Notes: generated by a model not told the origin, from the sequence alone. A stretch of 64,000 nt of DNA from Candidatus Zixiibacteriota bacterium (GCA_037441845.1 JBBIRK010000006.1:148880-212879), one strand, 5' to 3'; shown: positions 16,404 to 42,071, counted from the stretch's first letter. Program-made: numbers and translations.

Positions 16404-16437
16404 CACCGCGTCCTCCTTCAAACGACCTCCGGCCGGC

Positions 16438-16470
16438 AATAAACGCAAAAGGGTCCGGCATGCCAGACCC
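16438..16470 (-). terminator. Stem-loop (GGGTCcGGCATGCCaGACCC) followed on the - strand by a T-rich tract (TTTTGCGTTTATT). Putative terminator or attenuator between dsrP and the CoADR-rhodanese gene.
   Basis: Inverted repeat at 16451-16470. The complement of AATAAACGCAAAA (16438-16450) supplies the U-tract for a - strand transcript. It lies in a 126-nt gap after the dsrP stop. Confidence 0.35.
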
Positions 16471-16529: not shown

Positions 16530-17687
16530 TCAAGCCATCGCCTCTTCCTTATACGACAGAGCTATTTTGTAGAAGATAGTAACCAAGAAGAAGCCGATCG
16601 CATAGACGCCCAACGATATCAGCAATTCCGGAATAGTGGGGGAATATTCCGTCACATGTCCGATAGGCGAGGGCACGAATCCGGCTACCACCATCCCCAG
16701 CCCTTTGTCGATCCAAATGGAGCCGAAAACCATCAAACACGCCGCAATCAGCAGCCCGTTCACACGCCGCAATTTCGGCACTATCAATATCACCAGCGAC
16801 AGCACCGCCAGAAACACCGAGGTCCACATCCATGGCACCAACCGCGATTTCCCCTCGAGGCCGAAATACAGATACCGGAAATGCTCCAGATGTTCCGGAA
16901 TATTGCTGTAAAACGCGGTGAAAATCTCCATTAGGATAAAGAATACATTGATACACATGGCATAAGTTACAATCTGCGTCAGCTTGCCTATCGCCTCCTG
17001 CCCGGCGTCGAATTTGGTTAGCTTACGGATAATAAAACACATCAGTATCAACAGGGCCGGCCCCGAGGCAAAAGCGGAGGCGAGAAAACGCGGGGCCAAT
17101 ATCGCGGTCAACCAAAACGGTCGAGCGGCCAAGCCCGAATACAGGAAAGCGGTAACCGTATGGATACTTATCGCCCACGGAATGGACAAAATTATTATCG
17201 GTTTTATCCAGCCCGGAGGGGCGATCGCCTTGCGCTCGGCGTTTAATGTCACTCTGCTGATTATCACGTTCAATAATAGGTAGCCGCCCAGGGCTATCGA
17301 ATCCCAGAACATCAACGAATGGGGCGTCGGATACAACATGACGTTGGGAACGCGGGTCGGCTGTCCCATATCGACGAAAATGAACAACATGCACATCATC
17401 ACCGCGGCGATAGCCAAAAATTCGCCCAGAATAGTTATTTTCCCGAACGCCTTGTAATTATGCAGATAATAGGGCAATACCACCATCACCGCCGAGGCGG
17501 CCACACCGACCAAGAAAGTGAATTGCGCGATATAAAATCCCCAGGTGACGTCGCGGCTCAATCCGGTGATACCCAGGCCGTAGGCAAGCTGTTTCAAATA
17601 AAACAAGAAGCCGATGAAAATCACAATTCCCAGCAACGTTATCCACAGCCAATATCTTCGATCTCCGATTAGCGCTCTTTCCAGCAT
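16530..17687 (-). CDS. dsrP: DsrP, NrfD/PsrC-family integral membrane quinone-interacting subunit of the DsrMKJOP complex.
   Basis: 385-aa polytopic membrane protein (about 10 TM helices). It is the last gene of the dsrMKJOP array. Confidence 0.8.
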   Translation of the reverse strand: MLERALIGDRRYWLWITLLGIVIFIGFLFYLKQLAYGLGITGLSRDVTWGFYIAQFTFLVGVAASAVMVVLPYYLHNYKAFGKITILGEFLAIAAVMMCMLFIFVDMGQPTRVPNVMLYPTPHSLMFWDSIALGGYLLLNVIISRVTLNAERKAIAPPGWIKPIIILSIPWAISIHTVTAFLYSGLAARPFWLTAILAPRFLASAFASGPALLILMCFIIRKLTKFDAGQEAIGKLTQIVTYAMCINVFFILMEIFTAFYSNIPEHLEHFRYLYFGLEGKSRLVPWMWTSVFLAVLSLVILIVPKLRRVNGLLIAACLMVFGSIWIDKGLGMVVAGFVPSPIGHVTEYSPTIPELLISLGVYAIGFFLVTIFYKIALSYKEEAMA

Positions 17688-17694
17688 ATTTACC

Positions 17695-18477
17695 TCAAAC
17701 TATGTAATAGATTTGCGGTTTGGTGCCGAGTCCGGCCTTGCGGCGGATAGTGAAATTTTCGCTGAGGATCCGCCTTACCTCCGAATCCGGATTTTCCAGG
17801 TCGCCGAAATGCAGCGCCTTATGTTTGCAGGCTTCGACACAGGCGGGAAGCAATCCCTTGGCCAGCCGCTCCTCGCAGAAAGTGCACTTTTCGACCACGC
17901 CGCGGCTGCGCGTCGGAAATTCCGGGCGCAGTTCTTTTATGAAAGGACGGGGATCGCGCCAGTTGAAACTGCGCGAACCGTAAGGACAGGCGGCCACGCA
18001 ATAGCGGCAGCCGATACACCTGTGCCAATCCATCATGACGATTCCGTCTTTGCGGCGCCAGGTAGCCTTCGTCGGGCAGACTCCCACGCAGGGGGGATTG
18101 TCGCAATGGTTGCAAAGCACCAATACCGGCTTTTCGAGCACCTCATGAACCAAATGCTCATGTTCTAAATCCGGAAACGCCCCCTCGAATTTTTCTTTCC
18201 ATATCCATTTGATTTCGTCTTTCGGATTATCGAACCGGGGCACATTATGGGTCAGATGACAGGCCTCGATACAATCGCGGCAATTATCAACCTCACGGCA
18301 TTTCCGAAAATCGACCACCATAGCCCAGCGGGCGGCGGTCAGCGGACCGCTGGTTTGCGGCGGATTGACGATCAGCGAATCCTCGCCGGCTATAGCCCGC
18401 AAAGGGAAATTGATTGCGCAGCCGAACGCCGCCGCTGAACCGGCCAAACGCAAAAATTCCCGCCTATTTACTGACAT
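17695..18477 (-). CDS. dsrO: DsrO, periplasmic ferredoxin-like 4Fe-4S protein with a Tat signal.
   Basis: The twin-arginine signal is MSVNRREFLRLAGSAAAFGCA. There are multiple Cys clusters (CRDCIEACH, CNHCDNPPCVGVCP, CIGCRYCVAACPYG, CTFCEERLAKGLLPACVEAC). Confidence 0.85.
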   Translation of the reverse strand: MSVNRREFLRLAGSAAAFGCAINFPLRAIAGEDSLIVNPPQTSGPLTAARWAMVVDFRKCREVDNCRDCIEACHLTHNVPRFDNPKDEIKWIWKEKFEGAFPDLEHEHLVHEVLEKPVLVLCNHCDNPPCVGVCPTKATWRRKDGIVMMDWHRCIGCRYCVAACPYGSRSFNWRDPRPFIKELRPEFPTRSRGVVEKCTFCEERLAKGLLPACVEACKHKALHFGDLENPDSEVRRILSENFTIRRKAGLGTKPQIYYIV

Positions 18478-18862
18478 TGCGCACCTCCTGCGGTTCCAGA
18501 TGGCAGTCCCAGCAATAAGGGCTGACGCCCACGAAGGTATGGCATTTGTCGCAAAAATCGGATTTGTTGGAATGGCAGTTCATACAAGTATTGGTCAGGC
18601 TCATTTCGATCTCTTTTCCCGTAAATGTCGTGTAAGTCCTGATTCCCCGACGAACTACCGAGTCGCGCCACTGATTGAGGAAATCCATGTGTGCGGCAGT
18701 CATATAATCTGTCGGAGCCACACATTGTTTTTCCGCTGTCACCAATTTCGGTTCCGGACGATAATCCGCTTGGCCGCTTATTAGAGCGTTATACCAGAAC
18801 GGCACCGTGATTATCGCCAGAAATATGATCAGTCCCGTCAAAATTTTACCAGCATCGTACAT
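18464..18862 (-). CDS. dsrJ: DsrJ, small trihaem cytochrome c.
   Basis: There are three CXXCH motifs (CMNCH, CDKCH, CWDCH), an N-terminal signal anchor, and the conserved extra Cys (EKQCVAP). The protein is 132 aa. Confidence 0.85.
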   Translation of the reverse strand: MYDAGKILTGLIIFLAIITVPFWYNALISGQADYRPEPKLVTAEKQCVAPTDYMTAAHMDFLNQWRDSVVRRGIRTYTTFTGKEIEMSLTNTCMNCHSNKSDFCDKCHTFVGVSPYCWDCHLEPQEVRNVSK

Positions 18863-18864
18863 AA

Positions 18865-20475
18865 TTACCGTTCCTCCCCCGGTGAAAACGGAGTTCCCCG
18901 CAGATCGACCTCCCGCTTTTTTTCGCCTTTCATTACCAACGCATTGCCGACCAGCTCATGCACGCCGGCAACCTCGACACCCGGCACCCAATATTCGAGC
19001 AGCGGCGGTAGCGTTGCTTTATCGATAGCGCAAATACAAGCCAGCAGATTGACGCCGTGCTTTTCACTGACGAACTTCACAGCGTTGGCTCGCGGCAAGC
19101 CTCCCCGAAGCCGCATTTCGAGATTTTCGTCGGTGCCCAATCCCGATCCGGAACCGCAGCAGAAAGTTTGCTCTCTGATAGTGTTTTCCGGCATCTCGTG
19201 GAAACGATTGCAGACGTTTTTCAATATATACCGCGGTTCCTCGAGCAACCCCATCGCCCTTGAGGGATTGCACGAATCGTGAAATGTCACGTTCCAATGG
19301 TCGTTGCGGCTCGGATCAAGTTTCAACTTTCCGTGCTTAATCAGGTCGGCGGTGAATTCGCAAATATGCACCATCTTGGTCGATTTGGCGTTTTCGAATC
19401 TGGTTCCCGTAATCGGCGAAACCGGCGGCTCGAGAAAATCGGCCGGACCGTTTATGGTGTCCATATATTGGTGAAGCACCCGCCACATATGCCCGCATTC
19501 GCCTCCGATTATCCATTTCACTTTCAGGCGGCGCGCTTCGGCGTAGATTTTGTTGTTCAGCCTTTTCATCATCTCGGCTGAATGGAACAGGCCGAAATTG
19601 CCCCCTTCGGAGGCATAAGCGCTGAAAGTATAGCTCAATCCGATTTCGTGGAACAGCGCCAGATAACCCAAGAGCGTGTAATAATGAGGCGTGCCGAAAT
19701 AATCCGCCGACGGCACCACGAATAAGATGTCTTTACCTTTCTCGTTGATCGGAGCGTTCACTCGTATTCCGGTCAATTCCTCAAGTTCGTCGACCGCGAA
19801 TTCGATACTGTCTTTGAATCCGTGGGGTTGAATTCCGAGATGATTGCCGGTGCGGAAACAATTGGCCGCCGGAGTGGTAATCCAGTCGATCCCGCAGCCG
19901 ATCAGATTCAACAGCTCGCGCACCATCATCGTAATTTCCGCCGTGTCTATTCCATAAGGGCAAAAAACCGAGCAGCGGCGGCACTCGGTGCATTGATAGA
20001 AATAATAGAACCACTCCTTCACGACTTGCTCGGTCAATTCTCTGGCGCCGGCCATCCTGCCCATTATCTTGCCCGCCAAAGTGAAATCGTTGCGATAAAC
20101 CGAACGGAGCAGCTCGGCGCGCAAGACCGGCATGTTTTTGGGATCGCCCGAACCGATGAAAAAATGACACTTGTCGGCGCAAGCTCCGCAGCGCACGCAT
20201 ATATCCATAAAAATTTTCAACGAACGGTATCGGTTCAGACGTTCTCGCAGCCCGTTCAAAATGATTTCTTTCCAATTTTCCGGCAACTTCCAGTCGGCGT
20301 CGGTCGGTTGCCATTTGCGGACATGGGGCAAGCCGAGATATTCAGCGCGCTCGGGAACCGCCGCATAATTGTATGTTCCGTGGCGGAATTCGACCGCCGG
20401 ATCCATCCAGCTTTTTTTCGGAGGATTATAATCTATGCGCCCGAGCTCTTCGGGTTTAGGTGTCTTTTCAGCCAT
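18865..20475 (-). CDS. dsrK: DsrK, HdrD-like catalytic subunit (4Fe-4S plus CCG domains).
   Basis: Motifs: CVRCGACADKCH, CTECRRCSVFCPYG, HDSCNPSRAMG, TFCCGSGSGLG. The start was moved to the ATG at 20475 (MAEKTPKPEELG). That ATG overlaps the dsrM TGA stop as ATGA. Confidence 0.85.
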   Translation of the reverse strand: MAEKTPKPEELGRIDYNPPKKSWMDPAVEFRHGTYNYAAVPERAEYLGLPHVRKWQPTDADWKLPENWKEIILNGLRERLNRYRSLKIFMDICVRCGACADKCHFFIGSGDPKNMPVLRAELLRSVYRNDFTLAGKIMGRMAGARELTEQVVKEWFYYFYQCTECRRCSVFCPYGIDTAEITMMVRELLNLIGCGIDWITTPAANCFRTGNHLGIQPHGFKDSIEFAVDELEELTGIRVNAPINEKGKDILFVVPSADYFGTPHYYTLLGYLALFHEIGLSYTFSAYASEGGNFGLFHSAEMMKRLNNKIYAEARRLKVKWIIGGECGHMWRVLHQYMDTINGPADFLEPPVSPITGTRFENAKSTKMVHICEFTADLIKHGKLKLDPSRNDHWNVTFHDSCNPSRAMGLLEEPRYILKNVCNRFHEMPENTIREQTFCCGSGSGLGTDENLEMRLRGGLPRANAVKFVSEKHGVNLLACICAIDKATLPPLLEYWVPGVEVAGVHELVGNALVMKGEKKREVDLRGTPFSPGEER

Positions 20476-21470
20476 CACTTGTCCTTTTCCATAGGCAATC
20501 CAGAGGCCTTGATCTTGTCGGCGAATTCTTCTTCCCACTCCTCGTAAGTGTGCACTTTAACCGGATAATCCCACGGATTGATATGCCGCCGGCTTCGGCT
20601 GTCATTGGGCATATTGCGCGTAGGGGATAAGAATACTCCGCCCATATGCATCAGTTTGCCATAAGGGAAATACGCCACCAATACACAAACCAAAAACAGG
20701 TGCAAGTAAAATAAAACTCCCAACCCGTCCGGCACGACCGGATTGAAACTGACAAGCCCCATCGCCAACTCTTTGACCGCCACGATATCGGTCTTGAAAA
20801 AATACCTCATCAACACTCCGGTCACCGCGATCGATCCGATCAGAAGCAAGGGAAAATAATCCGCGAAAAGGGAAAAATACCGCAGTTGAGCCGAAAACAA
20901 CCGCCGCAAAAACAAAAAAGTCAATGCCGCCAGCAGCGTGATATTAGTGATATATATAATCGGCACCCCGATCTGGAAAAAGCCGTCGATACTTTGCAAC
21001 AGTTTGACGAATCCCGGCACGGGCTCGGCGAAATAACGGTAATGACGCAGAAAGACGATTAAAAACGACCAATGAAAAACGAGTCCGCCCAACCATAACC
21101 ACTTGTTGGCGCTGTAGGTCAATTTCGGTCCCGTCCTCAATTCGGCTTTGGTGTTCCGAAACAGCGAACGGAACAGCAGCACTTCGAGCGCCATGCGGAC
21201 TATTACTCCCAACTTGGAACTCGGGTTGTCGATTTTATTCGATTTTATCCAGGGAAGGGAGGTCTGCTGGCCGCAAGTGGTTGTGATTTTGAACGGCACC
21301 GGCGATTTAGACCAGCCGATCACCCGATAGACCACACCGGCAAAAAACGCCGCAATCGCCGCATAAGGGATTACCACCCCGAACAGTGATTGCAATCGCA
21401 GCATTCCCGACCCGATCAAAGCAATCGCTATCAAACCACCGGCCGCCAGAAAAGATACGAAGGCATTCAT
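20475..21470 (-). CDS. dsrM: DsrM, NarI-family dihaem cytochrome b membrane subunit.
   Basis: 331 aa, 5-6 TM helices, C-terminal YFPYGKLMHMGGVF, and a position upstream of dsrK. Confidence 0.8.
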   Translation of the reverse strand: MNAFVSFLAAGGLIAIALIGSGMLRLQSLFGVVIPYAAIAAFFAGVVYRVIGWSKSPVPFKITTTCGQQTSLPWIKSNKIDNPSSKLGVIVRMALEVLLFRSLFRNTKAELRTGPKLTYSANKWLWLGGLVFHWSFLIVFLRHYRYFAEPVPGFVKLLQSIDGFFQIGVPIIYITNITLLAALTFLFLRRLFSAQLRYFSLFADYFPLLLIGSIAVTGVLMRYFFKTDIVAVKELAMGLVSFNPVVPDGLGVLFYLHLFLVCVLVAYFPYGKLMHMGGVFLSPTRNMPNDSRSRRHINPWDYPVKVHTYEEWEEEFADKIKASGLPMEKDK

Positions 21471-22138: not shown

Positions 22139-22456
22139 TTAAACGCAGCCGGTCGGTTTCGCCAATCCGGCGACCTTGCAGGCTCCCTTGGCCGGTCCCG
22201 AGGGAAACAGCTCGTAGATCTCTTTCAGCGAAAATCCGGTTTCCTTGCAGAGCTTGCGGATCATCGGCGCGATACCGAATTTCTGATAATAATCGCGCAG
22301 ATAGTTGACTACCTTCCAGTGCTTTTCCGTCATTTCGGTTACGCCCTCGGCACCGGCGAGCGCTCTGGCTACATCCTCATTCCATTTATCCATTTCCTGG
22401 ATAAACCCGTCCTCATCAACCTCGATTCTCACGTTTCCTGCTTCGAAAATCGGCAT
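22139..22456 (-). CDS. dsrC: DsrC, with the conserved C-terminal swinging arm carrying both cysteines.
   Basis: 105 aa ending ...FPSGPAKGACKVAGLAKPTGCV. This is the GAC(K)...PTGCV DsrC signature. Confidence 0.9.
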   Translation of the reverse strand: MPIFEAGNVRIEVDEDGFIQEMDKWNEDVARALAGAEGVTEMTEKHWKVVNYLRDYYQKFGIAPMIRKLCKETGFSLKEIYELFPSGPAKGACKVAGLAKPTGCV

Positions 22457-32156: not shown

Positions 32157-32618
32157 ATAATTCTCCTTAAACCCTTATTCCCGCAACAAATGCTGGTATT
32201 CTCCAAACCCGAAGACTATACCGCAATTTGTGAAATAATTAACAATACCGGGCAAAAAAATCACCGTAAGGTTCTGCAGATTTTCCATAGCCGCTTCAAA
32301 TTAACAATCGCTAATTTCATATGTCAAGCAATAATCCGATTTTTTATCCCGATCATGGTCAACTTATATCATATTAGGAGATTCATTTTTTTTCTTGACA
32401 GGCTTTGTGAAAAAAAATACATTTCCCCCAAGAAATGAAATTTTGGGGAAATCGGCGCCGAGCTGGATTTTTTTGGTGATACATTGTGAAAAAAATAACA
32501 AGAATATTGGCCGCTCAATCTTTCTTTTCCCCGGTTTTCACGCCGATCCGCTTGCTCGATCAATCGAATTTATTCCATCGATATTAATCGAAACAACTAA
32601 AAGGTGACAGGAAGGCCT

Positions 32619-33845
32619 ATGCAAAAAACAAAATTAATATCCCCTCACGGAAGCAAGACGCTGAAAACGCTTCTGCTCGAGGGCAAGGCCAGAGAGGATG
32701 AACTTAAAAAAGCGCAAAAACTGCCGAAAGTAACCATCACCTCGCGGGAAACCGGTGATCTGATAATGCTCGGTATCGGCGGTTTCACCCCTCTCGATGG
32801 CTTCATGGGATATGACGACTGGAAAGGCGTCTGCCAAGACATGAAAATGACCAACGGCATTTTCTGGCCGATCCCGATTACCATGTCCCATTCGGAAAAA
32901 ATCAGTCCCGGAACCGAAATCTGCCTGATTTCCGAAGAAACCAAGGAAATCATGGGCACCATGAAAGTCACCGAATCCTACAAAATCGATAAGGACTTCG
33001 AGTGCAAAAACGTCTTCCGCACCAACGATCCCGAACATCCGGGCGTGAAGATGGTGGCCGAGCAGAAAGAATGGAATATCGCCGGACCGGTGAAAGTTCT
33101 ATCTGAAAGCTATTTCCCCACCGAGTTCGCCGGTATCTACCAAAGACCGGCCGAAAGCCGGAAAATCTTCGAGGAAAAGGGATGGAAAACCATCGCCGCC
33201 CTCCAGCTCCGCAATCCGATGCATCGCTCCCATGAATACCTCGCCAAAATCGCCATCGAGGTTTCCGACGGCCTTTACATTCACCAACTGGTCGGCAAAC
33301 TGAAACCGGGCGATATACCGGCGGATGTCAGGGTCAAATGCATAGATACCCTCGTAAATCTTTACTTCGTTAAAGAACGCGTGGTTTGCGGCGGTTACCC
33401 GCTGGATATGCGTTACGCCGGTCCGCGCGAGGGATTGCTTCATGCCGTTTTCAGACAGAATTTCGGCTGCACTCACATGATTATCGGCCGCGATCATGCC
33501 GGCGTCGGCAATTATTACGGCCCATTCGATGCCCAAGAGATATTCTACCAGCTCTGGGACGGCGCTCTCGAATGCAAAATGCTCCCGATCGACTGGACTT
33601 TCTGGTGCTACAAATGCGGCGGAATGGCTTCGATGAAAACCTGCCCGCACGGCAAAGAAGATCGGCTGCTTTTGAGCGGCACCGCGCTGAGAAAAGGCCT
33701 ATCCGAGGGCGGCGACATTCCGCCCGAATTCAGCCGCAAGGAAGTGCTGGATATCCTCCGCGAATATTATGCCGGGCTGACCGAAAAAGTCGAAATCAAA
33801 CTTCACGGCCATGCCACCGGAGAAGCGGATACGAAGAGAAAATAA
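32619..33845 (+). CDS. sat: Sulfate adenylyltransferase (ATP sulfurylase).
   Basis: [13 protein letters not shown] (the Q-x-R-N...H-x-x-H motif) and [12 protein letters not shown]. The start was set at the ATG at 32619 ([12 protein letters not shown]), which has a GGAAGG RBS; the track ORF begins at a GTG at 32604. Confidence 0.9.
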
Positions 33846-33876
33846 ATCGATAGCTTAAACGATACAGGAGGTTTGA

Positions 33877-34317
33877 ATGCCGAGTTATGTGATTTTCGAC
33901 AAATGTGATGGTTGCAAGGCGCTCGATAAAACGGCCTGCCAGTATATTTGTCCGAATGACTTGATGGTGCTTAACAAAGAAAAAATGAAAGCCTACAATC
34001 AAGAGCCGGAAATGTGCTGGGAGTGCTATAGCTGCGTGAAGATCTGCCCCGTCCAGGCGATCGAAATCCGCGGCTATGCCGATTTCGTGCCGTTGGGTGC
34101 CAGTGTCACCCCCATGAGAAGCAGCGATTCGATCATGTGGACCGTCAAGTTCCGCAACGGAATGCTGAAAAGATTCAAATTCCCGATTCGCACTACTCCG
34201 GAGGGTCAGGCCAAACCGGACGGCGGCTTTGCCACCGCTCACGACGATCTGAACAGCCAAGTCCTGGCCCAAGAGCCCGAGGCGCTGAGAACCAACGAAG
34301 TTTACACCATTAAGTAA
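33877..34317 (+). CDS. aprB: Adenylylsulfate (APS) reductase beta subunit.
   Basis: MPSYVIFDKCDGCKALDKTACQYICPNDLM...CWECYSCVKICPVQAI gives two 4Fe-4S clusters, followed by the AprB C-terminal tail. The RBS is CAGGAGG. Confidence 0.9.
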   Translation: MPSYVIFDKCDGCKALDKTACQYICPNDLMVLNKEKMKAYNQEPEMCWECYSCVKICPVQAIEIRGYADFVPLGASVTPMRSSDSIMWTVKFRNGMLKRFKFPIRTTPEGQAKPDGGFATAHDDLNSQVLAQEPEALRTNEVYTIK

Positions 34318-34337
34318 TAAGTCGGAGGAAGCTGAAT

Positions 34338-36263
34338 ATGTCTCAAAAATTTGAAACCGTAAAAGTAACGACAGATCTGCTTATTCTTGGTGGTGGCATG
34401 GCGGCATGCGGCGCTGCGGTCGAGGCCTCATACTGGGCCAAGAAAAAGGGCTTGAAAGTAACGCTTGTCGACAAGGCGGCCATGGATCGTTCCGGCGCAG
34501 TCGCCATGGGCTTGTCGGCGCTCAATCAATATGTCGGCCTCCACGAGGGCAAAAATACGGTCAAGGATTACGTGGATTACGTGCGTATGGACTTGATGGG
34601 CGTAGTCAGGGAAGACCTCGTCGCCAATATCGCCCGCCACGTCGATTCGACCGTCCACCTCTTCGAAAAATGGGGTCTGCCGATCTGGAAAGACGAAAAA
34701 GGCGGCTATGTCCATGAAGGACGTTGGCAGTTGATGATCAACGGCGAATCCTACAAGGTCGTTATCGCCGAGGCGGCCAAAAACGCGCTTGCCCAAGCCG
34801 GCGGCCAGTATTTCGAACGCATCTTCATCACCGAACCGCTGTTGGATGGCGATCGCATTGCCGGCGCCATCGGTTTCAGTGTCCGCGAAAACAAATTCTA
34901 CGTGTTCAATGCCAAGGCGACAATAGTGGCCATGGGCGGCGCCGTGCATGTGTTCAAACCACGCAGCACCGGCGAGGGTCTCGGGCGCGCCTGGTATCCA
35001 CCCTGGAATTCGGGTTCGAGCGCTTACTTCACCATCAAAGCCGGCGCCGAAATGACCAGCCAGGAAGTCCGCTTCATCCCCGTTCGTTTCAAAGACGCAT
35101 ACGGACCGGTCGGTGCCTGGTTCCTGCTCTTCAAGTCGAGAGCGACCAATGCAATGGGCGGCGACTATATGGTCGAGCGGGTTGACGAATTGCAAAGATG
35201 GAAACCTTACGGCCTGGTGAAACCTATCCCGGCCAACCTGCGCAATTGGCTCGGCATGATGGATACCATGGAAGGCAAAGGCCCGATCTACATGCGCACC
35301 GAAGAAGCGATCAACAAGATAGCCAAGGCTGCCGGCGATGAAAAAGAAGCCAAGAAAAAACTCAAAGAGCTGGAAGCCGAAGCTTGGGAAGACTTCCTCG
35401 ACATGACCATTTCGCAGGCGATCCTCTGGGCTTCAACCAATGTCGAGCCCGAGGTGAAGTCATCCGAAATCGCCGCCGCCGAACCGTATTTCATCGGTTC
35501 CCATTCCGGCGCATCCGGCGCCTGGGTCAGCGGTCCCGAGGATCTCCAGACTCCCGAAACCAAGAAGGAATACTTCTGGGGCTACAGCCACATGTCCACC
35601 GTCAAGGGTATGTTCTGCGCCGGCGATGCTTCGGGTGCCTCGTCGCATAAATTTTCCTCCGGTTCGCATGCCGAGGGCAGAATCGTGGGCAAAGCGGCAA
35701 TCAAGTTCATCGTCGAAAACAACACCCTGCCCAAAATCAACGACGCTGAGGTCGAAGCATTGAAGGCCGCGGTTTACAAGCCGCTGGAGAATTTCGAAAA
35801 ATTCAAAGGCGCCACCACCGATCCCGATATCAACCCCAATTACATCCGGCCGAAGATGTTCATGTTCCGCCTGCAAAAAATAATGGATGAATATGTTGGC
35901 GGCGTCTCGGCTCAGTTCTCCACCAATAAGGCTTGCCTCGATCGGGCGCTCGAATTGATCGGCTATCTCAAGGAAGACAGCGAAAAACTGGCGGCCAAAG
36001 ACCTTCACGAACTCATGCGTTGCTGGGAAAACGTCCAGAGGATGTGGCAGGCGGAAGCTCACGCTCGCACCATTCAGTTCCGCGAGGAAACAAGATGGCC
36101 GGGCTATTACCGCCGCGCCGATTTCCCCACCATGGACGAGAAAAACTGGCATTGCTTCGCCAACTGCCGCTGGGACCGCAACAAAAAGAGCTGGGAAATG
36201 ATCAAACGGCCGATGCTTCATATCTATCCCCAGCCACAAGAACACGAGTTGCTTGGCGGTTAG
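34338..36263 (+). CDS. aprA: Adenylylsulfate (APS) reductase alpha subunit (FAD).
   Basis: The N-terminal FAD motif is DLLILGGGMAACGAAVEAS. The 641-aa fumarate-reductase-family flavoprotein follows aprB. Confidence 0.9.
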   Translation: MSQKFETVKVTTDLLILGGGMAACGAAVEASYWAKKKGLKVTLVDKAAMDRSGAVAMGLSALNQYVGLHEGKNTVKDYVDYVRMDLMGVVREDLVANIARHVDSTVHLFEKWGLPIWKDEKGGYVHEGRWQLMINGESYKVVIAEAAKNALAQAGGQYFERIFITEPLLDGDRIAGAIGFSVRENKFYVFNAKATIVAMGGAVHVFKPRSTGEGLGRAWYPPWNSGSSAYFTIKAGAEMTSQEVRFIPVRFKDAYGPVGAWFLLFKSRATNAMGGDYMVERVDELQRWKPYGLVKPIPANLRNWLGMMDTMEGKGPIYMRTEEAINKIAKAAGDEKEAKKKLKELEAEAWEDFLDMTISQAILWASTNVEPEVKSSEIAAAEPYFIGSHSGASGAWVSGPEDLQTPETKKEYFWGYSHMSTVKGMFCAGDASGASSHKFSSGSHAEGRIVGKAAIKFIVENNTLPKINDAEVEALKAAVYKPLENFEKFKGATTDPDINPNYIRPKMFMFRLQKIMDEYVGGVSAQFSTNKACLDRALELIGYLKEDSEKLAAKDLHELMRCWENVQRMWQAEAHARTIQFREETRWPGYYRRADFPTMDEKNWHCFANCRWDRNKKSWEMIKRPMLHIYPQPQEHELLGG

Positions 36264-36305
36264 ATTTACGGTGCTTGGAAGGGAATCATTCCCTTGGTGA
36301 ATGGA

Positions 36306-36342
36306 GAATCCTCCGGTGGATGCCGGAGGATTCTTGATTTTT
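36306..36342 (+). terminator. Rho-independent terminator after aprA.
   Basis: Perfect 11-bp stem GAATCCTCCGG / CCGGAGGATTC with a 6-nt loop (36306-36333), followed by TTGATTTTT. Confidence 0.6.
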
Positions 36343-36569
36343 AGGCGGACCTTCATCGGAGGCCGAATCGCCGGTTGGCGGAAATGCCTTTGGCTGAAAT
36401 GAGCGGCGATTCCCGATTGTCTTAGGTGGGCCTGAAAGGCGATGTTCGGTGTTTTTTCGAATCGGTTTCAAGACCGATGATTGACTTTGACCGCCGATTG
36501 ACTATATTGTTTACGATCGCCCCGGACTTAAATTACGATGCCTTGATTTAGGGCCGATACCGGAGGAAG

Positions 36570-36839
36570 ATGATGACGAACGATAGCAAATTGAATTGCC
36601 CGCACTGCGGAAAATCGTTGAACAAATGGATGCCGCCCATTGAATCATCTTGGGGTCAAAACCCCCAGTACGTATGTTTCAACGACGAATGCCCTTATTA
36701 TGTCCGCGGCTGGGAGTGGATGAAGAATCAATTTCAACAACATGCCTCTTACCGTCACCGCTATAATCCGGCCAACGGGGAGGAGGGGCCGCTGCCCGTC
36801 TGGTCGCCCGAGGCATTGAAAGACGGAATCATCAAATAA
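36570..36839 (+). CDS. Small zinc-ribbon-like hypothetical protein.
   Basis: CPHCGKS...[10 protein letters not shown] gives two CxxC pairs. The protein is 89 aa. A TTGACT/TATATT promoter-like pair lies about 50 nt upstream. Confidence 0.35.
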
Positions 36840-36850
36840 ATGGATAGAAC

Positions 36851-37663
36851 ATGGAAGAAATCGAAAAACTGAAAAAAACGATACTCGCCGAGTATCCGAG
36901 ATTGAATCGCGCAAACGAGTTTTCTTTCAAATGCCATCCCGGGGTCAGCTGTTTCAACGTTTGCTGCGCCGATGTCAATATCTTTCTGACCCCTTACGAT
37001 ATCCTGAGGTTGAAACATAATTTGGGCATCTCCTCCGAAAAGTTCCTTTCGGACTATACGATCTCTCCTTTCGACGAAAAGCTGAAATATCCTATCGTGA
37101 TGTTGAAAATGGAGGATGACGAACGCAAGAGCTGTCCCTTCGTCGGCCCGGATGGCTGCCGAGTATATGCCGATCGACCCTGGGCCTGCCGCATGTATCC
37201 TTTGGGTCTTGCCTCGCCGAAAGAAAACAGCGGAATAGCGGACGATGAGTTTTATTTCTTATTGCAGGAGGATATCTGTCGGGGATTCGAGGAAAATCGC
37301 CGTTTAAGCGTGGCTGAATGGATCGACGAACAGGGAATCGCCGAATACGACGAGATGGGTAAATATCATAAAGAGCTTACCCTTCATGATTTTTTCCAAA
37401 AAGAAGGAAACAACCTCACTCCGGCCAAAATAGAAATGTTTTTCCTGACTTGCTACAATCTCGACCAATTCCGGGAATTCGTTTTCGGCAGCAGTTTTCT
37501 GGAAAAGTTCGATATCGACACGGAGACCCAAACCACCATCAAAGACAATGACGTCGAGCTGCTGAAATTCGGATACCGTTGGCTGAAATTCGCTCTATTC
37601 GGCGAAAAAACCATGAAAATAAAAGATGAAATAATTTCAAAGATAAAGTCGGGGAATTCATGA
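36851..37663 (+). CDS. YkgJ/UPF0153-family putative Fe-S or zinc-binding protein.
   Basis: CHPGVSCFNVCCAD and CPFVGPDGCRVYADRPWACRMYP match the YkgJ CxxxCC...C...YxxRPxxCRxYP pattern. Confidence 0.55.
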   Translation: MEEIEKLKKTILAEYPRLNRANEFSFKCHPGVSCFNVCCADVNIFLTPYDILRLKHNLGISSEKFLSDYTISPFDEKLKYPIVMLKMEDDERKSCPFVGPDGCRVYADRPWACRMYPLGLASPKENSGIADDEFYFLLQEDICRGFEENRRLSVAEWIDEQGIAEYDEMGKYHKELTLHDFFQKEGNNLTPAKIEMFFLTCYNLDQFREFVFGSSFLEKFDIDTETQTTIKDNDVELLKFGYRWLKFALFGEKTMKIKDEIISKIKSGNS

Positions 37664-37711
37664 TTTCCGGCGGTTCTAAGTTAGGTGATTAGATAACGCC
37701 ATCGGCCCTTG

Positions 37712-38389
37712 CTATCTGACCCGCAATCCCGCTATTTTCACCGCACCTCTATGATAACCGTCGGGGAACAACCTTTCCATATCCGCCAAATCGATCTTAT
37801 TATCCTTACACGTTTCATAAATCGTCGGCACGGTTTTATTTTCGGCGTATTTCTGCCTTAAGTAGGTTATCACTTTCCAATGTTCCTTGGTGAGAGGGAC
37901 TTTCATCTCATAAGCGCGGTTGACCGCGAACACCTCGTCCCAATCTTTCGGGTTGACCAAAAATCCCCGGGAATCGATCCGATAAGTTTTGGAATCGTAT
38001 TCCGATTCGAAACGTTTGTAGTTTTCTTTCAGCCAGAAATGTTGAATATAGGCTTCCCGATAAGTGATGCCGGCCAGCCTGCAGGCTCCGCGCAAATAAC
38101 CGGTGGGAAATAATTGCTGCAGTTCCCCCAGACCGAGATTGTTTTTTTTGCAGGCGACATATACCAGCGGGCAGCTGTTCATCGTGGCGAATGAATTCCG
38201 GATAAAGTGGATCACTTTCCAATGGCTGTCCGTCAAACCGACCGTGATTTTAACCGCCGGCGCAAGGGCTCTGGCGAAATCCTCATCCCATTTGGAGGGG
38301 TCGATCAGATAACCTTGCGCATCGATCGGATACCTCTTCGACTTGAAATAAAGATATTTGGGTTTGGCCGATTTCTTTCGAACGCTCAT
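37712..38389 (-). CDS. Tandem DsrC/TusE-like fusion (two DsrC-family domains, both lacking the C-terminal catalytic Cys arm).
   Basis: Domain 1 reads ...WDEDFARALAPAV...HWKVIHFIRNSF...LFPTGYLRGACRLAGI. Domain 2 reads ...WDEVFAVNRAYEM...HWKVITYLRQKY...LFPDGYHRGAVKIAGLRVR. Compare the window's own DsrC, ...HWKVVNYLRDYY...LFPSGPAKGACKVAGLAKPTGCV. Confidence 0.65.
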   Translation of the reverse strand: MSVRKKSAKPKYLYFKSKRYPIDAQGYLIDPSKWDEDFARALAPAVKITVGLTDSHWKVIHFIRNSFATMNSCPLVYVACKKNNLGLGELQQLFPTGYLRGACRLAGITYREAYIQHFWLKENYKRFESEYDSKTYRIDSRGFLVNPKDWDEVFAVNRAYEMKVPLTKEHWKVITYLRQKYAENKTVPTIYETCKDNKIDLADMERLFPDGYHRGAVKIAGLRVR

Positions 38390-38483
38390 ACACCGATTCC
38401 ACGAAACCCCGTCGCCTTTTCACCGCAGGCCTATTCCGAAAACGCTTTTCCACCGCTTCACAAGTAAGGCCGCACATTCGAAA

Positions 38484-38921
38484 TCAAGCGTAGGGATACA
38501 TCCCCTTCTTGATCTGCTCGAGATTTTTCAAAATCTCGCTGTGCTTTCTTTCGTCGATCAATAGGTAATCCAGAAGATATTCCTGAACCAGCATCTTTTT
38601 ACCGCGCAGTGCGGATAGGGCTTCCTCGGCGAGCTTGATCGTCTGGCTTTCGAGTTCGATATGATGCGCGATCATGCTCCATACTTTGGCGACTTCGTCG
38701 GGAGAAAGCGCCACCGCCTTGCCCTCAAGCGTCGAGGCGATGAACTCCTGCACTCGGTAATGCATCTGCGAATCCCGCTGGATAATTTCCATGATTAACC
38801 TGACGATCGGGTTGTCCGTTTTTTCGATAATGTTGCCGGTCGAGGCTATCGAGGCGTTCTCGATTTTCTGCCAGCGTTTCATGTTGTCAAGAATTTGCTG
38901 TTGCACTTCTTTGGTTGACAT
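38484..38921 (-). CDS. Hypothetical helical protein, possibly a ferritin-like four-helix bundle. The start is set at the internal ATG with an AAGGAAAGGA RBS.
   Basis: Recurrent E...H/ExxH pairs (MHYRVQE, IAHHIELE, ERKHSE). The track ORF, extended to 39062, would overlap the upstream gene by 90 nt. Confidence 0.35.
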   Translation of the reverse strand: MSTKEVQQQILDNMKRWQKIENASIASTGNIIEKTDNPIVRLIMEIIQRDSQMHYRVQEFIASTLEGKAVALSPDEVAKVWSMIAHHIELESQTIKLAEEALSALRGKKMLVQEYLLDYLLIDERKHSEILKNLEQIKKGMYPYA

Positions 38922-38971
38922 ATTTGAGTCCTTTCCTTGAGATTGCTTTGATAAAAGATTTCCTATTCGGT

Positions 38972-40588
38972 TTAATGCCATTCCCAGGTGAGGAACGGCT
39001 CCTTTATATCGGTCATGGCGTTGACTATCAATTCCACCAGCCCGCCGTATAAGATGTTGCACTTTTCGAACACCCCGTATGCGGAGAACAACTCACGAAT
39101 CTGTCCTTTGCAATTTGAGCACGGCGCACAAACGTATTTTTTATGCTCGGGGCCGATTATATCCTGGAACACATCCAAAACTTGCTTCAACTTCGCCCTT
39201 CCCGCAACGCTGTGCCGCCAGTCCGGGAAATTGGAATTGGGCATGATCGCAAATCCGCTGCCGCCGCCGCAGCAATAATTATATACTCCATGCGGCGTCA
39301 TCTCCCTGAAATTGGGGCAAATCGCCCGCAGTATCTCTCTTTGCGGCTCCACGATTCCCATCAAGCGGACCACGTTGCAGGGGTCGTGTAAGGTGACGTG
39401 AAAATCGGCGTTCCGCTGCGGATCGAGTTTCAATTTGCCGCTCAAAACGATATCTCTCAACAAGGTCAGCGAGCTTTCGCGGGGGATATTCAAATCGCCG
39501 GCGAATACTCTGTCGGCGACCACCGTCATCGCCTTGTGCGAATGGCCGCATTCACCTATCACGATCTTTTTGACTCCCAGCTTCTTGGCCACTTGGGCGT
39601 GCCGGATCGCCACTCTCGAAAACTGCACATCGTCATACCAGACGCCGTAATTGACACCGTCGTAACCCAAAAGATCGCTCGACAAAGTGTAGCTTATACC
39701 GGCGGCCTCCAAAATTATGGCGAAAGCCTCCGGATTCTCCGGCCAGGCGAGAAGTTCGCCGGCATTGTGGATTAAAAGCAGCTCCGCTCCCTCTTTATCT
39801 ATCGGCCACTTGAAATCCATGCCGGTTTTTTCGCGAATCTCGTCTTCCATGAATTCGATATTGTCTTTGAACGCCACTGGCGTCATGCCGGTCGATGATC
39901 CTTTGTCGAGATGCTGAACCGTTCCCAACTCGTGTACCTGCTTCGGCGCTATCCCCATCTCCTGGCTGAATATTTTGCGCAGTTCATGAGTAACCAAGCC
40001 GTTGTCGGCGCCTATCGGGCAGGTCTGGGCGCAACGGCGACATAGCGTGCAGCGATACGACAGCTCGATCAATCGAGCGATCATTTCCCACGATGCCTCG
40101 ATATAATCTCCGCTCAATCGGGAAAGAAATGCACCGCCTTGTTTGACATACCGCTTGTAAAGCTGCCTTAAAATCTGCGCCCTGAATGTGGGTCTATAGA
40201 TTTCTATCTCTCCGGATTGTTGAAATATCGGGCAGGCCTGCGAACAGGTCTGACAGCGCGCGCAATACTCGACTGTCAAAAGCAGCGGCTGTAAAAACGT
40301 CCAGTTGTTCTCTTTGGAAAACAGCTTGGACAAACCCGAAAGGAATTTCTCTACCAGCTGCCGTTTCTCGTTTTCGTCTTTCGGTTTGGGCAGCAACACA
40401 GCCGACACGCCATCCAGACCGCATTCGTATTTGCTCATCTGGTCTGCGGATAATTTTTTGATCTTCGGCTCGAGCTCGAGCTTGTTATAGGGGGGAGGAA
40501 GCGGGATGAATCCGGCCGGATCGAGTTCGACCAATTGCTCCACCGGACTATTCATGTCCTTCGGTGTGATATTCCTGTTGTCTTTCAT
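38972..40588 (-). CDS. DsrK/HdrD-like CCG-domain iron-sulfur protein (second paralogue).
   Basis: CARCQTCSQACPIF, CTLCRRCAQTCPIG, HDPCNVVRLMG and YNYCCGGGSGFAI are CCG motifs. The start was moved to the ATG at 40588, which overlaps the upstream stop as ATGA. Confidence 0.75.
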   Translation of the reverse strand: MKDNRNITPKDMNSPVEQLVELDPAGFIPLPPPYNKLELEPKIKKLSADQMSKYECGLDGVSAVLLPKPKDENEKRQLVEKFLSGLSKLFSKENNWTFLQPLLLTVEYCARCQTCSQACPIFQQSGEIEIYRPTFRAQILRQLYKRYVKQGGAFLSRLSGDYIEASWEMIARLIELSYRCTLCRRCAQTCPIGADNGLVTHELRKIFSQEMGIAPKQVHELGTVQHLDKGSSTGMTPVAFKDNIEFMEDEIREKTGMDFKWPIDKEGAELLLIHNAGELLAWPENPEAFAIILEAAGISYTLSSDLLGYDGVNYGVWYDDVQFSRVAIRHAQVAKKLGVKKIVIGECGHSHKAMTVVADRVFAGDLNIPRESSLTLLRDIVLSGKLKLDPQRNADFHVTLHDPCNVVRLMGIVEPQREILRAICPNFREMTPHGVYNYCCGGGSGFAIMPNSNFPDWRHSVAGRAKLKQVLDVFQDIIGPEHKKYVCAPCSNCKGQIRELFSAYGVFEKCNILYGGLVELIVNAMTDIKEPFLTWEWH

Positions 40589-41526
40589 TTCCCGTTGTCC
40601 TTTTTGTCCTGACCTGCGGCTTCGGTGGCCGCCTGCGCCCAGGTCTTGTTTTGCCCTATATGCGGGGCCGCCCAAGTCAATTTATAGCCGAGCGCCCGGG
40701 TGACCTCCGCTTCTATTTTACTGCCTCTAATATTAGGTTCGTCTTCCCATCTGACGGTGTGATAAGTGAAATACTTGCCGATAAAGTGAGTCATGTGGGT
40801 GAACGGCAGATAAACGAAAAACAAGGTCGTCAATATCAGGTGAAGTTGGGTGATCGTCGGCAAAGAGGGCGTGGCTTTCAAAGTAATCATGCCGCCGGCG
40901 AAAGAACGCAGATGCCCCAGCGATGAATCGGCCGTAAGCCACGACAAAAATCCGGTGACGAAAATCGCCAATAAAAGCAGCAAGTTGAAATAATCCGCTC
41001 TTACCGAAAATTTCCTCAGCTCCGCTCGAAAGATGCGACTTAAAAACAATCCGAACGCGCCGATCGCACCCAATACCCAGCCTGCCACCCCCGTAATGAT
41101 CGTGAAACCGTTAAGCAACCTTCCCCAGGTGCTTTCCGATGCGCCGGAAATCTCGATTCCCATGGTCTGCAGGACCCCTCCGATAAGCAACAAAAAGATC
41201 GTAGCCGTCAGCAAATAAAGACCGAAATGAAACGGAAACGAAAAATACCAGAGCTTGCGATTATTGCGATACAGCGATTGAATCGCCAAAATCTCGCGCC
41301 CCATTTCCGCTATTTCGCTTCCCACGGCGATCTGACGGGGCTTGGTCCACCAGTTTATCTCCTCGAAATACGAACCGCCGTAATGTTCCTTGCCCTTTTC
41401 GTGGGGAATAGGATAGAGCTCCCATCTCACGTGCAAAGGCATTCTGGCGATCCGGATCGCTCTAATAAGACATCCTACCACCAAAACAATCACCGCAAAG
41501 TAGAACACGAATTGTAACCAATTCAT
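40585..41526 (-). CDS. DsrM/NarI-family dihaem cytochrome b membrane subunit (paralogue).
   Basis: 313 aa with 5-6 TM helices, and VYLPFTHMTHFIGKYFTYH at the C-terminus. It is translationally coupled to the HdrD-like gene. Confidence 0.7.
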   Translation of the reverse strand: MNWLQFVFYFAVIVLVVGCLIRAIRIARMPLHVRWELYPIPHEKGKEHYGGSYFEEINWWTKPRQIAVGSEIAEMGREILAIQSLYRNNRKLWYFSFPFHFGLYLLTATIFLLLIGGVLQTMGIEISGASESTWGRLLNGFTIITGVAGWVLGAIGAFGLFLSRIFRAELRKFSVRADYFNLLLLLAIFVTGFLSWLTADSSLGHLRSFAGGMITLKATPSLPTITQLHLILTTLFFVYLPFTHMTHFIGKYFTYHTVRWEDEPNIRGSKIEAEVTRALGYKLTWAAPHIGQNKTWAQAATEAAGQDKKDNGK

Positions 41527-42003
41527 TCACTTACTCCCTTGCCCTTTCGCCGGTTTCCGGCTTGCGTTCGATTGCATAAGCGAAACGGCTGATATTTTCG
41601 CCGCGCCCGATGGCCGCAGTTCCGATTGATCGCAGGCGATCGATTTCCATAAAATATATTGTTCAGTAGATGATATTCTATCCGAGATTGAGAAAAATTT
41701 CTCTAAGTTTTCCATAAAAATCGGGTCTGAGTATTGAATCGACCCTTAAACTTATCGACAAAATATATATATGTATTTTATGCAATTCAAGTAATATTTC
41801 GCTTGTTGTTTCAAGATTTTATGTGATTTCATTCACATGATCGTCCGGTTTTGATTTTCGTTGCAAGACAACCTTGCCGGCACCGCTTTCAAATCCGATT
41901 CGCTTTGCGGTATCCTGCGCAATTATATTTTTTGCAACAGCTTGCGATAGTGGATAAATCACCCGCCGTTAGCTTTTCTGATCGCCGCCCGAGCGCATTG
42001 ATC

Positions 42004-42033
42004 TTGACTGCATTGTTCGTTTTAGGCTATATT
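42004..42033 (+). promoter_or_regulatory. Sigma-70-like promoter candidate (TTGACT, 17-18 nt, TATATT) for the PEP-utilising enzyme gene.
   Basis: Read directly from the 545-bp AT-rich intergenic region. It lies about 40 nt upstream of the ATG at 42072. Confidence 0.25.
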
Positions 42034-42071
42034 TTTTGATTAAATTGGTGTTGGGTCAAGGAATGGTATAG

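Follow-up and report, generated by a model that had tools for sequence, protein, structure and literature searches.

A dsrM2K2-family gene pair followed by p145 and a tandem DsrC-like gene in a sulfate-reduction gene region of Candidatus Zixiibacteriota

When a bacterium with a complete dsrMKJOP operon also carries a second gene pair of the DsrMK type, what does the second pair do, and does a DsrC-like gene found beside it encode its partner? This question is raised by a 64,000-nucleotide stretch of DNA from a Candidatus Zixiibacteriota bacterium (GCA_037441845.1, JBBIRK010000006.1:148880-212879; hereafter the window). Between positions 37,712 and 41,526, four genes on the minus strand encode a NarI/DsrM-like cytochrome b (DsrM2), an HdrD/DsrK-like CCG protein (DsrK2), a four-helix protein (p145), and a tandem DsrC-like protein (tDsrC). 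Sulfite reduction is coupled to the membrane by DsrMK, a step considered universal among DsrAB-using organisms. In hundreds of species from many phyla there is a second DsrMK-type module, which is more strongly conserved and often lies between dsrC and dsrMKJOP; it has been noted before and never explained. Judging from its scores and motifs, the window module is a member of this known but uncharacterized dsrM2K2, or alternative DsrMK, family. The explanation that we favor, tentatively, is that a family member was joined in a Zixibacteria-like lineage to two lineage-restricted genes, with the mechanism outlined below.

Gene layout and family of the DsrM2K2 module

The four genes lie on the minus strand in the order dsrM2 (40585..41526; 313 aa, Pfam Nitrate_red_gam at 1e-10), dsrK2 (38972..40588; 538 aa, Pfam Fer4_8, a 4Fe-4S dicluster domain, and CCG), p145 (38484..38921; 145 aa), and the tDsrC gene (37712..38389; 225 aa, two PF04358 domains at 5.7e-45). 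These open reading frames (ORFs) and their domains agree with the initial annotation, which was made from the sequence alone. The intergenic gaps along this order are -4, 50, and 94 nt and no terminator-like intergenic site was found on the minus strand between the four genes, which makes their co-transcription plausible as a prediction. Promoter and terminator scan counts at the locus were not above chance, and an Rfam scan of positions 36000-43000 gave no match. The TGA stop of dsrM2 and the ATG start of dsrK2 overlap as ATGA, as had been annotated. The genuine dsrM/dsrK pair of the window had been described as coupled in exactly the same way; however, its junction reads aagTGATGg, which is a 1-nt TGATG overlap, or GTGA if an in-frame GTG is the start.

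The best NCBIfam model for DsrK2 is DsrK (NF045796) with 325.4 bits, below the cutoff of 400, whereas the true DsrK of the window scores 740. For the other models, the scores are 181 bits for TmcB, 179 for HmcF, 40 for LdhH, 22 for LutB, and 15-19 for GlpC. DsrM2 reaches 44.5 bits against the DsrM model (NF038037; cutoff 300), compared with 534.5 for the true DsrM. At the sequence level, DsrK2 is 29% identical to the true DsrK of the window and DsrM2 is about 28% identical to the true DsrM. The possibility, raised with the initial annotation, that the CCG protein belongs with the LutA/GlpC-type enzymes and has unrelated neighbors is ruled out by these NCBIfam scores and by its sulfur neighbors, which are dsr and apr genes.

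The second DsrMK-like module is thus real, but it is not new. Paralogs of dsrMK (dsrM2, dsrK2) were described as "not uncommon" in sulfate-reducing microorganisms (PMC6018796), a second DsrMK set was reported in Desulfosporosinus (PMC6372793), and DiSCo includes "An alternative DsrMK type" (PMC8477390). In Ca. Thermonerobacter, the gene order is dsrAB-dsrD-dsrN-hyp-dsrL-dsrC-dsrM2-dsrK2, and transcripts were detected (PMC6338057). Loci of the L056 type have this same order, and their DsrK2 proteins are 61-62% identical to that of the window. The likeness to the dsrM2/dsrK2 genes of Acidobacteria and Desulfosporosinus (PMC6018796, PMC6372793, PMC8477390) is one of shared name and paralog status only. 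Unlike the published examples, the window pair is detached from dsrC, inverted beside sat-aprBA, and followed by p145 and tDsrC, features of which no mention was found in PMC6018796, PMC6372793, PMC6338057, or PMC8477390.

A scan of one genome per species found DsrK2 relatives with 60-80% identity in at least 562 species, and neighborhoods were counted in the best 80 of these at least 562 species loci (L010-L089) by clustering of the neighboring genes and by tblastn with the sulfur proteins of the window. DsrK2 homologs number in the thousands, the best 120 being 65-92% identical, and the DsrK2 proteins of the 80 species loci are 60-76% identical to the window protein. The carriers include Zixibacteria, Ignavibacteria, Gemmatimonadota, Acidobacteriota, Chloroflexota/Dehalococcoidia, and Planctomycetota, as well as Syntrophorhabdus, Smithella, Desulfomonile, KSB1, Methylomirabilis, Fibrobacteres, and Spirochaetes. 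In about 75 of the 80 loci, dsrK2 is directly preceded by a DsrM2-like gene, and the exceptions are mostly at contig ends.

The commonest specific neighbor of DsrM2K2 is a DsrC-family gene. In 17 of the 80 loci, a genuine two-cysteine dsrC, with a product ending in GAC.(I/V/L)AGL..PTGC(V/L), is located directly upstream of dsrM2, and dsr, apr, sat, or qmo genes lie no more than 7 kb away in 34 loci. Typically the genes run dsrA-dsrB-dsrN-dsrC-dsrM2-dsrK2, and in many cases dsrT comes next, together with a true dsrMKJOP as a second set. For example, the dsrK2 genes of L036, L051, L056, L059, L060, and L065 (61-63% identity at the protein level) lie between dsrC and dsrT-dsrMKJOP. In the Zixibacteria loci L017, L019, L021, and L094, the module follows sat-aprBA and the genes for an Ogr-like zinc finger and a CxxCxxCC protein; the window has this same neighborhood with the module inverted. 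Because of the dissimilatory sulfur-cluster context and the prominence of DsrC-family genes among the specific neighbors, a functional link between DsrM2K2 and DsrC-family proteins is well founded.

Two other groups of neighboring ORFs came out of the clustering. Cluster c16 (about 111-164 aa, no Pfam match) often stands directly after dsrK2 in loci of the dsr-cluster type (L030, L031, L042, L058, and L059), and by eye its members are DsrE/TusD-like. Cluster c9 was rejected as a gene family, as it is the antisense ORF of a receiver-domain gene.

DsrK2 and DsrM2 signatures and the chemistry they suggest

DsrK2 contains CxxCxxCxxxC twice, which corresponds to two cubane [4Fe-4S] motifs, and one CCG non-cubane motif. 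Among the 120 homologs, HDPC-x34-CC-x46-CxxC is kept in all, CxxCxxCKG in 119, and ECGH in 118. The DsrK alignment comprised the window DsrK2 with eleven family members, the true DsrK of the window with five others from dsrMKJOP operons, and a third DsrK-like protein of the window that carries a receiver domain (HdrD-REC). ECGH and HDxC...CC were common to all of these sequences. Residues were mapped through the true DsrK sequences from the window and other loci, not through a solved DsrMK structure, and a PDB sequence search with DsrK2 and DsrM2 gave no match. In this alignment, ECGH of DsrK2, with C347 and H349, matches the ECGH motif of the true DsrKs; according to a cryo-EM preprint, the three hallmarks of the DsrK catalytic site include a strictly conserved non-ligating Cys329 with His331 in A. 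fulgidus (bioRxiv 10.64898/2026.08.25.746951). The same study found that Asp500 of DsrK replaces the "supernumerary" Cys ligand of HdrB, and proposed that this tunes the cluster toward an oxygenated, harder substrate that arises from the trisulfide (bioRxiv 10.64898/2026.08.25.746951). At the Asp500 column, DsrK2 has C493 (CAPCSNC), whereas the six true DsrKs have C.CAID. Cysteine is present there in 119 of the 120 DsrK2 homologs, and also in HdrD-REC. The presence of an Hdr-type Cys at this position, instead of the Asp of true DsrK, suggests that DsrK2 cleaves an S-S bond in a two-electron reaction like that of Hdr.

For DsrM2, a 50-sequence alignment showed that H32, H100, H247, and H289 are the only invariant histidines. 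H100 (TM2, the second transmembrane segment) and H247 (TM5) align, at about 25% identity, with two of the four heme histidines of DsrM. Since the second TM2 histidine is missing and H229 (TM5) is only 60% conserved, DsrM2 probably carries one heme rather than two. Highly conserved segments at both ends of DsrM2, N-terminal (PxHLRWELYPxPHE...YGGSY) and C-terminal, have no counterpart in DsrM. No dsrJOP genes were found beside dsrM2K2, where the next genes are p145 and tDsrC. The Cys-for-Asp and reduced-His signatures of the DsrM2K2 family, together with its very wide distribution and the neighborhood statistics, are new here.

By several of these features DsrM2K2 falls outside DsrMK, although it would plainly work as an enzyme of the DsrMK/HdrED type. 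It shares with the DsrMK of DsrMKJOP a NarI-type cytochrome b gene translationally coupled to that of an HdrD-like subunit, two [4Fe-4S] motifs, one CCG motif, the non-ligating Cys-x-His (ECGH), and frequent dsrC/dsrAB neighbors. It differs in that identity is below 30%, scores are below the equivalog cutoffs, Cys replaces Asp500, and only two of the four heme histidines are present. As in HdrED of methanogens and HdrBC, there is a membrane cytochrome b with a CCG catalytic subunit, and the proximal cluster has the full Cys set including the "supernumerary" Cys. Unlike in those enzymes, DsrK2 has one complete CCG motif with the distal-cluster site cut to Cys-x-His as in DsrK, the context is not that of a methanogen, and the substrate is likely a protein thiol rather than CoM-S-S-CoB. 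HmcEF and TmcBC have the same two-subunit architecture; however, DsrK2 scores 179-181 bits against the corresponding cutoffs of 735-750, and no cytochrome c partner genes are located nearby.

The mechanism that we favor can be set out as follows, with the direction of electron flow, the substrate, the heme number, and the contact between DsrK2 and tDsrC being those that we infer, whereas gene content, family membership, motif states, and neighborhood counts were observed. DsrM2, as a NarI-type protein with probably one heme, would exchange electrons with the menaquinone pool. In DsrK2, electrons would pass through the two cubane [4Fe-4S] clusters to the single non-cubane cluster, at which a cytoplasmic S-S bond on a DsrC-family protein would be reduced. 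The ancestral and usual partner of DsrM2K2 would be a genuine two-cysteine DsrC. For DsrK2, Hdr-like two-electron reduction of a disulfide or persulfide appears more likely than the DsrK-type reduction of a perthiosulfenate derived from the trisulfide. tDsrC would most likely dock on DsrK2 as an accessory, either as a thiol/disulfide partner through the Cys of its first domain or as a modulator. The Asp-versus-Cys difference at a residue now proposed to tune the cluster, together with the probable single heme, leads to a testable prediction, namely, chemistry on disulfides and not on trisulfides. These predictions for DsrM2K2 and tDsrC leave the general view of sulfate respiration as it is unless biochemistry bears them out.

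The tandem DsrC-like protein, p145, and competing explanations

The tDsrC family has 1311 homologs, which are mostly about 218 aa in length, and its named members are all from Zixibacteria or GN15. Each half of tDsrC aligns over its full length with the genuine DsrC of the window at 33-34% identity, and the modeled domains superpose on the DsrC of DsrAB-DsrC crystal structures (Foldseek TM 0.86-0.90). There is no tandem DsrC relative in the PDB. In the AF2 model, a flexible linker of helical structure connects the two DsrC folds of tDsrC; each domain is modeled with confidence (mean pLDDT 85.6), the linker pLDDT is 53-58, and the pTM is 0.53, such that the mutual orientation of the domains is not confident. 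Across 121 members, four cysteines are 98-100% conserved; domain 1 contains C73, C80, and C103, and domain 2 contains C194. C103 occupies the CysB position (GACRLAGI) of domain 1, at which domain 2 has Val; in DsrC, CysB (GAC.xAGL) precedes CysA by ten residues. C80 and C194 align with C70 of DsrC, and C73 is an extra invariant Cys.

DsrC's C-terminal arm (AGL-PKPTGCV), with CysA as its penultimate residue, gives way in domain 1 to the helical linker and is cut to AGLRVR in domain 2. Among the 121 members, 116 have no Cys in the last 12 residues and five have any. The CysA of DsrC and TusE is the sulfur-carrying residue. As neither domain of tDsrC has the arm or CysA, the protein, judged from its sequence, cannot carry a trisulfide or persulfide in the way that DsrC and TusE do. 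Assignment as TusE was also rejected, because tDsrC scores 82.7 bits against NF008562 (cutoff 191) and lacks a C-terminal Cys. A division of the family into DsrC, TusE, and RspA is recognized (PMC8477390). Compared with these PF04358 proteins, tDsrC has the DsrC fold in both halves and the CysB position in domain 1. It differs in its fused domains, in lacking the arm, CysA, and AGLPKPTGC, in the extra C73, and in the invariant Cys within the helix-turn-helix-like region of both domains. A literature search for tandem or fused DsrC, or for RspA, found nothing relevant. The armless tandem DsrC family, which is most often found near hydrogenase genes, is presented as new here. Linked as it is either to DsrM2K2 or to hydrogenases of the Hdr/Mvh type, it adds to the DsrC-family proteins that possibly serve as protein "heterodisulfides" or redox regulators. 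One longer relative, of 359 aa, is encoded amid housekeeping genes at positions 10001-11080 of L006; it is 54% identical to tDsrC at 98% query coverage and has room for three DsrC-like domains.

Linkage of the tDsrC gene with dsrM2K2 is confined to a few loci. The same four-gene arrangement is found in L005 and L095, in which tDsrC is 78% and 88% identical to that of the window, respectively. In a sister clade (L092 and L093), dsrM2-dsrK2 (79% identity) is followed after about 30 nt by the tDsrC gene (60% identity), and p145 is absent. Co-conservation of the DsrC-like gene with the module, as implied by the initial annotation, was not found beyond these two clades. In complete Zixibacteria genomes, two or three tDsrC paralogs instead stand in a row after an Mvh-type NiFe hydrogenase. 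HdrA-like, MvhD, MvhG, MvhA, HycI, HypA, HypB, or HypE genes adjoin tDsrC in 14 of 80 metagenomic tDsrC loci, and the other loci have no recurrent neighbor. The hydrogenase-type loci include L001 (3967-9365), L002 (4542-10140), L099-L101, L105, L110, and L161, in which one to three tDsrC paralogs follow HdrA-like/MvhD/MvhG/MvhA genes and HycI, HypA, and HypB. Some of them have a sulfhydrogenase-like cluster downstream, and HdrBC genes were not found near these loci.

A DsrC relative of another kind is found in the Dehalococcoidia locus L082, which has two dsrM2K2 copies. The second copy (11264-12220 and 9593-11263) is directly preceded by a single-domain DsrC-like gene (12354-12761, minus strand), and the sole Cys of the product (…RGPCRIAGIPRHIIRPSFLYP) is at the CysB position. 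Thus, armless DsrC relatives that retain CysB were recruited beside DsrM2K2 at least twice, and the two settings (tDsrC and the single-domain protein of L082) are unrelated, which makes a functional link plausible. The initial annotation had proposed that a DsrMK paralog paired with a dedicated DsrC-like protein mirrors the DsrMK-DsrC relationship. The tie to the DsrC family stands, given the dsrC genes upstream of dsrM2 and the CysB-only gene of Dehalococcoidia, but tDsrC itself has no arm or CysA and is not co-conserved with the module. Overall, the earlier interpretation is partly supported.

The proposal that tDsrC is the dedicated substrate of the DsrMK paralog, acting as another persulfide or trisulfide carrier that is cycled alongside DsrC, appears distinctly unlikely. 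The common strand and the short gaps in the window, L005, and L095, as well as the close spacing to dsrK2 in L092 and L093, agree with it. In addition, four invariant Cys, including that at the CysB position, argue for thiol chemistry over a purely structural role, and the paralogous tandem copies (two or three genes; L001-L004, L102, and L106) are more carrier-like than regulator-like. However, the residue that enters DsrK is CysA. In DsrMKJOP-DsrC structures, the arm extends more than 17 Å and brings CysA into a deep DsrK pocket, while CysB is about 22 Å from the cluster (bioRxiv 10.64898/2026.08.25.746951). The absence of arm and CysA thus argues against the earlier idea of a different persulfide or trisulfide carrier, as do the rarity of DsrM2K2 at tDsrC loci and the fact that the commonest recognizable neighbors of tDsrC are hydrogenase genes.

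Proteins of the RspA type were reportedly set apart by Venceslau and colleagues in 2014 as DsrC-family members that lack the catalytic C-terminal Cys, and they are presumed to be regulatory. Set against this definition, tDsrC lacks CysA but has CysB and three further invariant Cys, and it is a fused dimer. It is conceivable, at rather low probability, that tDsrC is such a regulator, with its helix-turn-helix-like motif kept and its fused domains paired as a pseudo-dimer. The expression of genes for sulfur or hydrogen metabolism would then depend on its thiol state, which DsrK2 or enzymes of the Hdr/Mvh type would perhaps set. The missing CysA combined with a DsrC fold kept in both halves would suit this role, and the location of tDsrC alone or at the end of operons of varied kinds is typical of regulators. 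Nevertheless, two or three tandem paralogs in one operon would be unusual for regulators, and DNA binding alone does not explain four invariant Cys. No conserved operator-like repeat was found either, no search having been aimed at one.

The remaining gene of the module, p145, had no match in Pfam or NCBIfam. Its family has 1566 matches, nearly all of which are exactly 145 aa. In the AlphaFold model (pLDDT 89.7), the protein forms four long helices, and its best Foldseek matches are weak ones to ferritin-like diiron proteins. Pfam Ferritin and the ribonucleotide-reductase small chain match 18 and 14 of 41 members, respectively, below threshold. The invariant residues are E21, E45, H54, E91, and E124xxH127, which would fit a degenerate diiron site, and p145 is tentatively placed in the ferritin-like superfamily. 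In other Zixibacteria, p145 genes occur in FUR-p145-peroxiredoxin(-rubrerythrin-desulfoferrodoxin-ferritin) clusters (L090, 6523-8121; L091, 6545-10925). A p145 homolog is also located between dsrN and dsrL in L056 (about 3155-3583), where it is probably the "hyp" of the published Thermonerobacter order, and another is beside dsrA in L058. In the window, p145 has the appearance of an insertion specific to this lineage, placed between dsrK2 and the tDsrC gene; since it is absent from L092 and L093, it is not required for their linkage. A HEAT-like protein of about 222 aa is encoded both beside DsrM2K2 (L094, 6066-6734, minus strand; L021, 13943-14575; L022, 2541-3200) and in the FUR-p145 cluster (L091, 10254-10925).

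Several observations weigh against the mechanism that we favor. The single heme is a provisional assignment, as it comes from alignments at about 25% identity. By the geometry of the arm, the armless tDsrC could not reach a cluster in a deep cavity of the DsrK type. Sulfur genes were not seen within 7 kb in 46 of the 80 DsrM2K2 loci. Of all 80 loci, 26 have a stand-alone receiver-domain gene 5-160 nt downstream of dsrK2 (for example, in L011, L012, L017-L022, L032, L033, and L037), and the upstream regulators are of the MerR type with a Cys-rich tail (nine loci) or the Rrf2 type (five loci). This context agrees no less with a part in sensing or stress than with one in respiration. Finally, DsrM2K2 is present at only one of the 80 metagenomic tDsrC loci (L095), and the tDsrC genes of two complete Zixibacteria genomes are more than 1 Mb from DsrM2K2. 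Because the tDsrC gene is unlinked to DsrM2K2 in most genomes, their adjacency may be incidental.

The regulatory context leads to a further explanation, in which DsrM2K2 would be no spare DsrMK but a distinct quinone-linked disulfide reductase or sensor of the Hdr type. It would act on DsrC-family proteins that contain CysB (oxidized DsrC, CysB-only proteins, and tDsrC) within a redox-stress or regulatory circuit, and tDsrC would be a new thiol redox carrier that the module shares with HdrA/Mvh-type hydrogenases in Zixibacteria. This reading is suggested by the MerR and Rrf2 regulators upstream, the receiver gene downstream, and the p145 and HEAT-like proteins common to the FUR/peroxiredoxin clusters, and PAS kinases and sigma-54 activators are likewise common near DsrM2K2. 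Nonetheless, we consider it quite improbable.

That the adjacency is indeed incidental seems rather doubtful, at a level similar to that of regulation by tDsrC. According to this explanation, the partner of DsrM2K2 is the genuine DsrC, whose gene lies 16 kb away, p145 is a ferritin-like protein of oxidative stress, tDsrC belongs to the Mvh/HdrA hydrogenase system, and the three were joined by local rearrangement. A local rearrangement did happen, because the DsrM2K2 block is inverted relative to sat-aprBA-Ogr-CxxCxxCC as arranged in L019, L021, and L094. Furthermore, p145 is found elsewhere in FUR-AhpC-rubrerythrin clusters, tDsrC is found elsewhere after HdrA-like/MvhD/MvhG/MvhA/HycI/HypAB genes, and the spacer between p145 and tDsrC is poorly conserved. 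However, the DsrK2-tDsrC linkage recurs in the second clade, which has no p145 and whose DsrK2 and tDsrC have diverged to 79% and 60% identity. In addition, dsr clusters of other phyla (L056 and L058) contain p145 homologs beside dsrM2K2, and the CysB-only DsrC-like gene precedes DsrM2K2 in Dehalococcoidia.

Sulfur genes and other DsrMK-type features of the window

The window holds a complete dissimilatory sulfate-reduction gene set. On the minus strand are qmoA, qmoB, dsrA, dsrB, dsrN, a DsrL-type flavoprotein gene, dsrC, dsrT, and dsrMKJOP, behind which are a gene for a CoA-disulfide-reductase/rhodanese fusion and then heme/siroheme genes. The genuine dsrC (22139..22456, minus strand) encodes 105 aa ending in GACKVAGLAKPTGCV, lies between dsrL and dsrT-dsrMKJOP, and is likely the source of the canonical partner of DsrK-type enzymes in the same genome. 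The genuine dsrMKJOP operon spans 16530..21470 (minus strand; NCBIfam DsrM 534 bits, DsrK 740 bits), with dsrM and dsrK at 21470..18865 and JOP at 18862..16530, behind the true dsrMK only. The sizes of the latter ORFs fit DsrJ, DsrO, and DsrP, and their homologs are present in dsr clusters elsewhere. On the plus strand, sat, aprB, aprA, and the genes for the Ogr-like zinc finger and the CxxCxxCC protein (32604..37663; the last two by Pfam) are convergent with the DsrM2K2 module, and this block ends 49 nt from the tDsrC gene. The closest similarity of Sat, AprA, p145, and tDsrC is to proteins of Zixibacteria metagenome-assembled genomes.

The fusion gene after dsrP (14715-16448, minus strand) encodes a CoA-disulfide-reductase-like flavoprotein joined to a rhodanese domain. 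It is also found in L051, L060, and L094 (35-50% identity) and may be a further conserved dsr-associated gene. The Ogr/Delta-like zinc-finger and CxxCxxCC (YkgJ-type) genes directly 3' of aprA (36570-37663, plus strand) are conserved in L017, L019, L021, and L094. A sat-aprBA-hyp-hyp order that the window block matches has been described (PMC6338057), and the two genes are probably the "hyp" genes of the published sat-aprBA-hyp-hyp-qmoC order. There is no qmoC beside qmoAB; about 21 kb from qmoAB, at 6234-7358 (plus strand), a QmoC-like protein of 374 aa is encoded. It begins with a 4Fe-4S dicluster domain, and its C-terminal part, which is of the membrane type, bears a weak similarity to DsrM/DsrM2.

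The initial annotation counted three DsrMK-type modules in the window, a count that holds only in a loose sense. The third of them (5411..637, minus strand) consists of genes for a MerR-type regulator (5411..4581), a 229-aa membrane protein with marginal similarity to DsrM2, the HdrD-like protein with a C-terminal receiver domain, HdrD-REC (3825..2086; 579 aa), and a PAS histidine kinase. The three DsrK-like proteins of the window are mutually 27-29% identical. The third module looks like a thiol or quinone redox-sensing two-component system. Its HdrD-like and PAS kinase genes co-occur again in the Zixibacteria loci L021 and L043. A stand-alone receiver gene, whose product is 65% identical to that of L011, is also present in the window at 5572-5949 (plus strand), far from DsrM2K2.

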